From a virus (lineage: Duplodnaviria; Heunggongvirae; Uroviricota; Caudoviricetes), in IMG/VR virus record IMGVR_UViG_3300025316_000590, positions 64,134-128,133 of that record: 64,000 nucleotides of DNA. One strand, 5' to 3'. A program made the position numbers and the translations under genes. Shown here piece after piece: positions 47,262 to 49,627 of this stretch; position 1 is the first letter of the stretch, and every line of letters starts with the position of its first letter. The notes beneath the pieces were generated by a model that saw only the letters and a program-made list of their open reading frames with translations, made no database searches and was not told the DNA's origin.

Positions 47262-47335
47262 CGCGGAGTGGAGCAGTCCGGTAGCTCATGAGATTCATAA
47301 TCTCAAGGTCGCAGGTTCAAATCCTGTCTCCGCCA
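47262..47335 (+). tRNA. tRNA-Met(CAT), initiator-like
   Basis: Full cloverleaf with C1xC72 mismatch and GGTTCAAATCC T-arm. Anticodon arm is TGAGA-TTCATAA-TCTCA. CCA is not encoded. Confidence 0.9.
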
Positions 47336-47413
47336 CTCGTAGCCATCAGGCTAGGTTAGGTCGCCCGCACGAACGCCGACAGCGTGCGGGACGGCAGCAG
47401 ATTGTCGGCAACC

Positions 47414-47789
47414 GGGGGCGAATTGGATTCGACCGGGCAGCTAGAAGATTGAGTTGCGTGTCGTGGTTGGTCAGCAGGCCACGTTAATAGCCGACCAAAA
47501 ACTTACTTGCCAAAAACAAGTTCGAGAAGGCTCCGGCCTTCGCCCTCGTGGCCTAATAACCACGAGCCGACTGCGAACCCATCCGAGAGGTTCAAAAGCC
47601 GGCTGTAAACTCGGATCGTTCACGGTCGCTGCTGGTCACGCCGTGGATTAAAAATGCTACCGGCTGGTCGAACGACAACCCTGTTGATCCGGGGATCGCG
47701 AGACGACAGCTTGCAAATAGGATCGACTACACACGTAGACGCTTGATCGGAAATGTCGCGGGACGCGGGTTCGATCCCCGCCGCCTCCA
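47414..47789 (+). ncRNA. ssrA: tmRNA
   Basis: 5' GGGGGCG..GGATTCGAC and 3' GGGTTCGATCCCCGCCGCCTCCA with G3-U70. Tag ORF 47509-47556 encodes AKNKFEKAPAFALVA*. Confidence 0.95.
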
Positions 47790-47862
47790 CTAGGCCGACT
47801 GCACGCCGGGACTACATCTACCATGAACGAAGATGTCTCGGCAAACACCTCGTCGGCCTTTT

Positions 47863-48810
47863 CTACTTCCAGATGGTAGCCGCCTCGGCGGCGTTCATCT
47901 CGCCGGGATCCTTGCGGTGTTCCGGAACCAGAGCCGTGCGGTTCTCGTGGATAAGCTGACCGGCCAGGACCAGAGCCTGCTCCTCCGCCGCCTGGTCGAG
48001 GAGAATCACCACCTCATCGAAACGCTCCGACAGCTTGTTGAGGATGACCTTCTGCTGCGGCGTGATCGATGTGGTTTGCACCGATACCGCGTAGCATCCG
48101 CGAGGAGCGTAGACGTTCAGGTTCAGGGCATCGAACGGGCCTTCGTTCACGATGAGCTTTCGTCCGCCGTGTTTGGCCTGCGGCAGTCCGAAGATGCCCC
48201 ACTTTGGCTGCGGGCCGGCGGGCTCGGCTTTGTACCGCAGTCGGGACTTGGTGATCGCCCTGCCGTAGAACGCGATCATGTTTCCGGCCCAGTCGTGAAT
48301 CGGGAACAGGATGCGATTGGCATGTTTGCCGGTTACGGCACACTTCAGGTCATACTCGTCGCAGGCCCAGGCGATATCGCGGTTGGGTATCTTGCGGTCA
48401 TAACGCATGTAATCCCAATAGTCCCGCGTGACGCCTTCAGGGTGTATTATGCGGGCTTCCTGCGGCCAATTGATCACCTTGACCGATTTCTTTACGGGAT
48501 GCTCCTTGGCCATGAACGCGGCGACCGCGGCTTCGTAACCTTCCAGCGGCGGACCTTCATCTTCGCCGATACTGCGGGCCGCCTCGTGGCCGGCGAGCAG
48601 TGAGATGATCCGTTGGAAACTCATGCCGTGGTTTTTGTTACGCCAGCAGAAGTAACCGCCGTCACGCAAACTGATATTACCGTGTTCGCTGCGGTCGGCT
48701 TCGCCACACATCGGGCAGTGGATGCTTACGCAGCCTCGCTTCGTGTTCTTGCCGTCCGTGACGTACTTAATACGGAAGCGGTCGAGGATTTCTTTAACGT
48801 TCATGATCAC
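47863..48810 (-). CDS. DNA primase (Zn-binding + TOPRIM)
   Basis: HCPMC..YFCW; RILFPI..IAFYGRAI..RYK; IVNEGPFDA; ILLDQ. Confidence 0.88.
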   Translation of the reverse strand: MIMNVKEILDRFRIKYVTDGKNTKRGCVSIHCPMCGEADRSEHGNISLRDGGYFCWRNKNHGMSFQRIISLLAGHEAARSIGEDEGPPLEGYEAAVAAFMAKEHPVKKSVKVINWPQEARIIHPEGVTRDYWDYMRYDRKIPNRDIAWACDEYDLKCAVTGKHANRILFPIHDWAGNMIAFYGRAITKSRLRYKAEPAGPQPKWGIFGLPQAKHGGRKLIVNEGPFDALNLNVYAPRGCYAVSVQTTSITPQQKVILNKLSERFDEVVILLDQAAEEQALVLAGQLIHENRTALVPEHRKDPGEMNAAEAATIWK

Positions 48811-48816
48811 CTCATG

Positions 48817-48940
48817 TGGAGCATACGGGGATCGAACCCGCAGGCGAATGGCTACGCTGCGAGTCGGTCGCCTCCATTGCGCGGTAGCGACCGCCGCCCT
48901 GCGTAACTATTCAGCATCCGCGCCGCGTGCGGCATGCCCC
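48817..48940 (-). ncRNA. tRNA-Ala-identity tRNA-like RNA (non-canonical body)
   Basis: Acceptor GGGGCAT/ATGCTCC-A with G3-U70; T-arm GCGGG-TTCGATC-CCCGT; ~80-nt interior without a standard D or anticodon arm. Confidence 0.65.
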
Positions 48941-49120
48941 GTACCACAAATAGACACGGCAAAGCTCATCGTGTCTAGTCGTTAGCTCGGCCTGCGGTGG
49001 CCAGTAATAGTGCCAGGGGCGGATCTTCGGATCCGACGCCACACCGCGGCGGCGACGCCCGCCCATAGCGGACGTGGGCAGCCGCGGGCCGGGCGTTTGA
49101 TAACCTCGCGTTGACGGGAG

Positions 49121-49627
49121 GTGGCAACCTCGCTATGTTGGGAAGTTGCTAACGAAATACCGATAAACGAGGAACAGGCGACCCGCGACGGTCGCCTGTT
49201 CATGGCTTGCAGCAATCGGAGGTTGCTAGTGCCTACTCCTCATCCTAACACGATCATACAGGACGGTCAAGGGCCACATCGTACTATCTCGGAATCTACA
49301 CGACGGCTTATTCTAGCCATCGATCAGCAGCTACTCGACGATCTTAGCAAGCGTGACCTTCTGCTCATGCTGGAGTGCTTTTATCACACGGACAAAGATA
49401 CGTGCCGGTTCCCGATGCGTAATCGGGACGTCATGCAGCGGTTTCGATGGAGCCACCAGGAGACTCTACACCACATCTGGGAGCTTGAGCGTCGCTTTAT
49501 CATCATGTGTAGAACAGGGTGTCGGTGGGAGTTCCTACCCGACCGTGAATACTACAGCGAACTGGTAGTCGAATTAAATAAAACACGGAAACGCGTCAGT
49601 CCGCGTTCTCGCAACGGGGAATTGTAG
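49121..49627 (+). CDS. Winged-helix-like DNA-binding/replication protein
   Basis: Pattern CRFPMRNRDVMQRFRWSHQET..HIWELERRFII is wHTH-like; start codon uncertain. Confidence 0.5.
   Translation: MATSLCWEVANEIPINEEQATRDGRLFMACSNRRLLVPTPHPNTIIQDGQGPHRTISESTRRLILAIDQQLLDDLSKRDLLLMLECFYHTDKDTCRFPMRNRDVMQRFRWSHQETLHHIWELERRFIIMCRTGCRWEFLPDREYYSELVVELNKTRKRVSPRSRNGEL

Follow-up and report, generated by a model that had tools for sequence, protein, structure and literature searches.

Genes surrounding the tRNA-like element

Analysis of the region upstream of a phage gene encoding a DnaG-like primase revealed a tRNA-like element positioned between this gene and a divergently oriented set of genes (Table 1). 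The window, that is, the whole stretch of 64,000 nt that was analyzed, comprises bases 64134-128133 of a 192-kb virus record of an uncultured phage. The record is 99% complete, and identical DNA is present in freshwater and lake metagenomes; among the public runs listed for it, none is registered as RNA. Only two RNA genes were identified within the window by ARAGORN and Rfam, namely, a tRNA-Met gene and a full tmRNA gene. The primase start was assigned to the ATG at 48804, and the resulting N terminus, MNV(K/R)(E/D)ILDR, is common to the relatives. On the other side of the element, the divergent plus-strand genes encode a small unknown protein, a 357-amino-acid unknown protein, a DnaB helicase, and a sigma-70-type protein. 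A genome-wide scan with a covariance model built from the element demonstrated that it is present as a single copy in the 192-kb genome. Neither an SmpB gene nor a Ro/TROVE protein gene was found in the phage genome.

Two further tRNA-like features of this genome were recorded. The tRNA-Met gene carries a C1/C72 mismatch at the top of its acceptor stem and thereby resembles the bacterial initiator tRNA, in which position 1:72 is unpaired. Outside the window, a further irregular tRNA-like gene (C1:44689-44763) was reported by ARAGORN as "tRNA-???" with a two-base anticodon (ct).

Table 1. Coordinates of the tRNA-like RNA gene, its parts, and the adjacent features in the window
Feature	Position	Strand	Remarks
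tRNA-Met gene	47262-47336	+	ARAGORN/Rfam
Full tmRNA gene	47414-47790	+	ARAGORN/Rfam
DnaG-like primase gene	47863..48804	-	phrog_47 "DNA primase," E=5e-26; weak Pfam DNAG_N and Toprim matches
Spacer, 12 nt	48805..48816	-	Between element and primase; contains Shine-Dalgarno-like GAGGUG (48813-48808)
tRNA-like RNA gene, 124 nt	48817..48940	-	G1 = 48940; discriminator A = 48817
Acceptor stem, 3' strand AUGCUCC, plus discriminator A	48817..48824	-	CCA not encoded; next bases CAU
T arm GCGGG / UUCGAUC / CCCGU	48825..48841	-	Canonical; loop invariant
Long closed irregular hairpin (rod), about 73 nt	48843..48915	-	Replaces anticodon arm; 72-73 nt, pairing kept in both lineages
Apical block CC(G/A)-CGCAA-UGGA	48873..48884	-	3-4-bp stem and pentaloop; 11/12 positions identical between lineages
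D-arm-like hairpin, CCGC/GCGG stem, 7-nt loop ACGCGGC	48918..48932	-	RNAalifold
Acceptor stem, 5' strand GGGGCAU	48934..48940	-	Same in L005 and in the ARAGORN-called phage tRNA-Ala(GGC) of L003
Promoter-like motif GTGTCTAT	48950..48957	-	Faces the element; last base 9 nt before G1
Second, back-to-back motif copy GTGTCTAG	48971..48978	+	Faces divergent plus-strand (helicase-side) genes

Structure of the 124-nt RNA gene

The acceptor stem GGGGCAU/AUGCUCC consists of seven pairs in which G3 stands opposite U70. The complete alanine identity set (G1:C72, G2:C71, G3:U70, G4:C69, and A73) is present and invariant in both lineages that carry the element. Further canonical tRNA features, besides the 7-bp acceptor stem and the discriminator base, are a 5-bp T stem and a 7-nt UUCRANY loop. 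In the preliminary description of this DNA, a 7-bp acceptor stem with G3:U70, a discriminator A, and a canonical T arm had been placed on the minus strand at 48940..48817, and these coordinates proved to be exact. A GGTCGC/GCGACC hairpin noted in the interior is also present, at element positions 49-54 and 70-75. The distance of 7 nt given there for the gap to the primase needs correction, as the gap measures 12 nt when counted to the ATG at 48804.

RNAalifold analysis of a plain MAFFT alignment predicted the acceptor stem, a 4-bp D stem, a long irregular hairpin with an apical 3-bp stem and CGCAA loop, and the T arm. The 7-nt loop of the D-arm-like part starts with A and contains GG, an alternative 3-bp CCG/CGG hairpin fits equally well, and the acceptor and D stems are separated by 0 to 1 nt only. 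Folds constrained to a cloverleaf lie above the minimum free energy by 3.7 kcal/mol in the window phage and by 3.3 kcal/mol in L005. The statement that the interior has neither a standard D arm nor a standard anticodon arm was thus upheld for the latter: no 5-bp anticodon stem with a 7-nt U33 loop is common to both lineages, and this place is occupied by the closed rod. For the D arm, it has to be modified because a D-arm-like hairpin is predicted, and one of its pairs is changed on both sides.

Comparison of the two lineages revealed no conserved open reading frame in the element and no conserved peptide in the rod. A putative upstream open reading frame starting at an AUG in the apical loop was rejected, since the two lineages do not share the same frame and their peptides bear no relation to each other. 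No 9-nt target complementary to the apical block was found in the phage genome except the element's own antisense strand. An interpretation as an attP or tRNA-fragment integration site was rejected as well; both acceptor strands are present, and there is no integrase nearby.

As foreseen in the preliminary description, the element was submitted to searches for standard RNAs, and none was called: ARAGORN gave no call at the element, and Rfam gave no match there, at gathering thresholds or at E<=10, including RF00005 (tRNA), RF00023, and RF02553. The specificity of the structural pattern was estimated on shuffled windows. An acceptor stem with any 7-bp closure combined with any T arm was matched 0.66 times per shuffled window, and the addition of G3:U70 and A73 reduced this value to 0.005. 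The shape of acceptor stem and T arm taken alone would therefore be weak evidence for an RNA gene, and the decisive support comes from the conserved homologue described below.

Conservation of the element in related phages

A search of metagenome assemblies for close relatives of the primase revealed two lineages. In the L005/L030 lineage, whose primase is 65% identical, a homologous element is located at the same locus and is again exactly 124 nt long; conservation in related phages, set beforehand as a check, was thereby confirmed for this lineage. In the L024 lineage, whose primase is 71 to 72% identical to that of the window phage and 66% identical to that of L030, the element and the leader are cleanly absent, the upstream region and the promoter-like motif are retained, and the primase ATG follows 7 nt after the motif. 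Because a lineage with such a similar primase does without the element, the primase can be expressed in its absence, and the phage may not need it either. Within the window type, and likewise within the L005 type, all remaining copies are identical, so that the number of distinct sequences is two. Contigs from four DNA runs, among which population variants were looked for, are identical across the element.

Distant primase homologues (30 to 36% identity) have no intergenic space upstream, and a blastn search against a phage GenBank collection gave no match to the element. No further member was detected with covariance model R1 in the whole phage genome, in all loci, or in 80 viral loci containing the 16-mer of the T arm. 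Pattern scans of viral, metagenome, and genome contigs returned only true tRNA-Ala genes, a permuted tmRNA, and unrelated tRNA-Ala-like genes with inserts. One of the latter (L018:4819-4933, plus strand; the same in L020 and L021) lies in a 21-tRNA array of a low-GC phage and specifies a 115-nt RNA followed by an encoded CCA, which is not called by ARAGORN. Its alanine-type acceptor stem (G3:U70) is the same, its 5' half contains an AT-rich insert of about 45 nt, and its 3' half resembles a class II tRNA-Tyr with a variable arm and an anticodon arm carrying GUA. The others (L019:3387-3512, minus strand, and L042:4303-4430, plus strand, from a Brevibacillus metagenome-assembled genome with a second copy in L041) are tRNA-Ala-like genes with the anticodons CGC and GGC, respectively. 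Their variable-arm region contains a hairpin of about 55 nt. They are likewise not called by ARAGORN and have an interior unrelated to that of the window element.

On a short contig of one relative with a 71% identical primase (L007:1-197), an HNH/HTH-type homing-endonuclease-like open reading frame ends directly at the primase start. In L024:1-1759 (also L025, L027, and L028), the DnaB helicase contains an intein with a LAGLIDADG domain and measures 949 to 969 amino acids, compared to 535 amino acids in the window phage.

Comparison of the two lineages demonstrated that the parts of the element are conserved to different degrees. The acceptor stem and discriminator are identical at 15/15 positions, and the T loop is identical at 7/7 positions. 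Identity amounts to 65% in the T arm, 80% in the D arm, and 58% in the rod, and third codon positions of the primase are 52% identical. If the last value is taken as a roughly neutral rate, the probability of 15/15 identity is about 5e-5. Since the acceptor is invariant in comparison with both the rod and the third codon positions, the acceptor sequence itself is, judging from this alignment, under constraint beyond its pairing.

In the consensus of 33 pairs, 98.5% of the pair cells are paired, compared with 31 to 44% when the partners are slid by 1 to 3 columns; this statistic rests on two rows, so that covariation is weak and the shuffle control is uninformative. Five pairs are changed on both sides with pairing kept; the rod and the T stem account for two each and the D stem for one. 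Another four are changed on one side in a wobble-compatible manner, and one is broken. The D-stem pair 12:20 changes from C-G to U-A, and the double changes of the T stem in L005 are G-C to C-G and G-C to A-U. A single recombination patch, instead of stepwise compensation, could account for both T-stem changes. These comparisons show that sequence is under selection in the acceptor stem and the T loop, and shape in the other helices. Such a constraint on the acceptor would be imposed by a partner that reads sequence, such as alanyl-tRNA synthetase (AlaRS), and would not be imposed by processing enzymes that read shape.

Relationship to tRNA-Ala

The element shares with tRNA-Ala, both the phage tRNA-Ala(GGC) of L003 and bacterial tRNA-Ala, an identical acceptor stem with G3:U70 and A73, a canonical T arm, and the order of a cloverleaf, along with a predicted D-type hairpin whose loop contains GG. 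It differs from tRNA-Ala in the closed rod that takes the place of the anticodon stem-loop and in its fusion to an mRNA leader. Outside the family, the covariance model built from the element scored best with tRNA-Ala (36.9 and 29.5 bits), and lower scores were obtained with the RNA of mycobacteriophage DS6A (25.8 bits) and the 3' end of the window tmRNA (16.5 bits). Together with the conservation described above, this points to a conserved RNA gene that is derived from tRNA-Ala, lacks an anticodon, and is predicted to be made together with the primase message.

A tRNA-Ala gene that is decaying or was hit by an insertion, and that survives in the gap between promoter and primase, would account for the silence of the standard tRNA finders and for the loss of the element in the L024 lineage. 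Genes of tRNA-Ala type with large inserts do occur elsewhere, in the variable arm (L019 and L042) or in the 5' half (L018). A relic, however, would not be expected to keep the same length, all helices, the GG of the D loop, the T loop, and the full acceptor sequence in lineages whose third codon positions in the primase are only 52% identical, and no remnant of an anticodon loop is common to both lineages. This explanation is therefore considered very unlikely.

The insert exceeds the length of an anticodon arm by about 48 nt and lies at the usual site of tRNA introns, so that an intron-containing tRNA, from which the rod would be spliced out to yield a decoding tRNA, was also considered. Whichever internal segment is excised, however, no 7-nt loop results that is conserved, contains U33, and carries the same anticodon in both lineages. 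By eye, the candidate loops differ between the lineages, and those of the window phage have no U33. The rod contains no bulge-helix-bulge motif in either of the two lineages compared, and its length is far below that of a group I intron. A spliced, decoding tRNA is hence extremely unlikely. The lack of a conserved anticodon loop also makes it unlikely that the RNA is a decoy for anticodon nucleases, as had been suggested.

Comparison with tmRNA and the DS6A RNA

The preliminary description had regarded the element as an alanylatable mimic of tRNA or tmRNA. The full alanine acceptor identity, the missing anticodon, and the conserved homologue speak for such a mimic, but the part referring to tmRNA was not supported, since the element does not show the tmRNA signature. 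Helix 2 of the phage's own tmRNA is flanked by an unpaired D-loop analogue with GGAUUCGAC and by a GGAC before the T arm, and both are absent from the element.

The 16-mer of the T arm, which had been reported to be identical in the 3' end of the tmRNA, indeed matches there, at 47765-47780 and not at 47764-47779. The meaning attached to this match, a T arm shared with the tmRNA as a link or partnership, was not borne out: the 16-mer represents a generic T arm that occurs in at least 119 viral contigs, and in L005 it is not kept, the T stem of the homologue being different and compensated. A functional link to the tmRNA via the 16-mer was consequently rejected. A tmRNA-like tag frame ending in LAA-stop in the window phage was rejected too; its stop is lost in L005, the frames differ by indels, and no tag frame is conserved in the rod between the two lineages.

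The only published phage precedent that was found is the CDS-less tmRNA of mycobacteriophage DS6A, which consists of the tRNA-like domain (TLD) only. This RNA (L022:28478-28557) is similar to the window element in that it is phage encoded, combines an alanine-type acceptor stem with a T arm, has neither an anticodon nor a tag frame, and lies just upstream of a replication gene, the DNA polymerase III gene gp34. A molecule much like it is reported to inhibit tmRNA strongly, perhaps via titration of SmpB (PMC4131195), and the same is reported for the DS6A form when expressed in E. coli (PMC11915505). Similar CDS-less forms are found in jakobid mitochondria and Mallomonadaceae plastids (PMC4131195, PMC11915505).

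A tag-less tmRNA of this kind would bind SmpB and would either rescue ribosomes without tagging or titrate SmpB from tmRNA. The element resembles tmRNA in its G3:U70 pair, A73, and T arm, its rod is about as long as helix 2 of tmRNA, and its covariance model matches the DS6A RNA with an E value of 0.003. The same model, however, ranks tRNA-Ala above both DS6A and tmRNA, and the Rfam tmRNA model (RF00023) does not match the element at E<=10. The DS6A RNA, in contrast to the element, is 80 nt long, has a short helix 2, and retains the tmRNA motifs in the forms GGUCGAC and GCAC. The 124-nt element has a long rod and contains neither the 5' UUCGAC nor the 3' GGAC motif, between which helix 2 lies in tmRNA and DS6A. 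At the site where SmpB binds, a paired D arm is predicted for the element; such an arm is absent in tmRNAs. A complete tmRNA is encoded 1 kb away, and the phage has no SmpB gene, so that titration of SmpB would disable its own tmRNA too. In view of these differences, a tag-less tmRNA appears improbable.

Promoter-like motifs and the predicted primase transcript

The motif GTGTCTRG, two copies of which lie next to the element, occurs 11 times in the window, compared to 3.3 expected occurrences, and none of 100 shuffles reached 11. The sites are oriented in the same direction as the surrounding genes and lie shortly upstream of gene starts. The two copies at the element form an AGACACG...CGTGTCT palindrome that is unique within the window; elsewhere, the motif is single. 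The spacing between the arms of the palindrome is 11 nt in the window phage, compared to 1 nt in L005. Because the spacing is variable and single copies occur elsewhere, two promoters fit better than one operator. From the last base of the motif to G1 the distance is 9 nt in both the window phage and L005, and in L005 the divergent gene likewise has its ATG 9 nt from the motif. On the basis of these spacings, the transcript probably starts at G1 or at most 3 nt before it. No terminator was found between the element and the primase, and the two should therefore be cotranscribed.

Two conserved features in primase direction were observed upstream of the palindrome. A GC-rich hairpin, ACAGGCGACC...GGTCGCCTGT, at 49172-49201 (minus strand) is conserved and is shared with L024, which lacks the element. 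At 49001-49015 (minus strand), the motif CTGGCACTATTA is present in the window phage, L024, and L005 and is similar to the -24 half of a sigma-54 promoter. Because of the conserved upstream hairpin and motif, and because the gene calls of identical ENA contigs start at 49367, the open reading frame at 49121-49366 is probably noncoding. In L024:2985-3003 and upstream of the divergent HAD_SAK_2 gene of L005/L030, GTGTCTGG or GTGTCTGT lies only 7 to 9 nt before the ATG, a distance that suggests leaderless mRNAs in this phage group.

The position of the element between the promoter motif and the ribosome-binding site, without a terminator, raises the question of whether it serves purely in cis as a leader of the primase mRNA. 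The tRNA shape would then recruit RNase P, RNase Z, or RNase E or bury the 5' end in a helix, and would set the 5' end, the stability, or the translation mode of the primase message; a processing signal for RNase P/Z had been among the suggestions of the preliminary description. In this case, the alanine identity would merely have been inherited from the source tRNA. With a transcription start at or just before G1, the 5' end would indeed be base-paired. In the lineage without the element, the primase mRNA appears to be leaderless (motif, 7 nt, ATG), and the lineages with the element have leaders of 12 or 24 nt, so that the module would alter the mode of translation start. Enzymes that read shape, however, need no given acceptor sequence, and yet the acceptor and discriminator are invariant and the other stems vary. 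No alignment is possible between the 3' leaders of the two lineages, and L024-type phages drive the primase without the module, directly from the same promoter. A purely cis-acting leader is thus regarded as possible, though unlikely.

Predicted maturation and charging with alanine

The best reading of the element is that of an alanine-accepting, non-decoding RNA, with charging as a prediction. AlaRS charges RNAs with a G3:U70 acceptor helix whatever the anticodon, as established for tRNA-Ala minihelices and tmRNA. Because AlaRS reads the acceptor stem only, the host enzyme would be expected to charge the element.

The RNA would arise as the 5' portion of the primase transcript and would be freed by the tRNA 3'-processing machinery, which would cut after A73 before CCA is added. 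The tRNA-Met and tmRNA genes of the phage also do not encode CCA, and each has an A followed by CU. Since none of the three RNA genes of the phage encodes CCA, a shared maturation route, with cleavage after the discriminator and subsequent addition of CCA, may be assumed. Host AlaRS would then load the RNA with alanine, and the rod would exclude it from normal decoding. The half formed by acceptor and T arm could act in trans on a host factor that recognizes acceptor arms of the alanine type, which it would occupy or divert. Candidate targets are AlaRS itself, EF-Tu, the ribosome-rescue machinery, and a nuclease or modifier directed at acceptor stems; the trans-acting target is a matter of pure inference. 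Charging with alanine in combination with a role in trans via the acceptor half is considered, with moderate confidence, to be the most likely mechanism.

The usual explanations for tRNA genes in phages are codon supply and the replacement of tRNAs cut by defense nucleases. An RNA that bears every mark of alanine charging and yet is non-decoding fits neither of these explanations. Because it lacks a defining feature of standard tRNA, of tmRNA, and of YrlA, the element was classed as a variant of a loose kind, the phage-encoded, alanine-type, non-decoding tRNA mimic, and the D-arm-like hairpin combined with a rod of about 72 nt constitutes a new architecture here. We consider it quite unlikely that the element belongs to a widespread, undescribed class of alanine-accepting, anticodon-less phage mimics acting on host translation, ribosome rescue, or tRNA surveillance. 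If this were true, one early transcript would deliver a replication enzyme together with a charged decoy, and the processing or charging state of the RNA could couple the expression of a replication gene to the state of the host tRNA machinery. Should such mimics be charged and act on AlaRS, EF-Tu, SmpB, or toxins directed at acceptor stems, they would add a new level at which phages control the translation of their hosts. The defined promoter and the defined mRNA partner make clean tests feasible.

Comparison with other noncoding phage RNAs and tRNA-mRNA cotranscripts

Modules with the shape of a tRNA that are transcribed with a message and cut off by tRNA-processing enzymes are known from the E. 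coli tRNA-tufB operon, the mitochondrial tRNA punctuation model, and MALAT1-mascRNA. In these examples, the modules are decoding tRNAs or 3'-end signals, whereas the window element is a non-decoding 5' module with strictly kept alanine identity, and its cutting is a prediction.

The RNAC and RNAD (species 1 and 2) of phage T4 resemble the element as phage-encoded stable RNAs of 119 to 139 nt, and at least RNAC ends in a T arm of the tRNA type. They differ in that they are located in a tRNA cluster and not in an mRNA leader and have, by eye, no alanine-type acceptor stem; they exhibit no sequence similarity to the element and no match to its model. To our knowledge, no role has been recognized for them in 50 years. 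Both originate from the tRNA region of T4, and their role is still described as unknown (PMC3014915).

YrlA RNAs (RF02553), the bacterial and phage Y RNA-like molecules, are also non-decoding and join a module of tRNA-like T arm, D arm, and acceptor to a long helix. Their topology is reversed: the ends of YrlA lie within the long protein-binding stem and the acceptor is closed, whereas the window element has an open acceptor and a closed rod. Directly 3' of the tmRNA gene, at 47792-47862 (plus strand), Rfam reported a weak YrlA match of 18.3 bits, compared to a gathering score of 69, which is probably noise.
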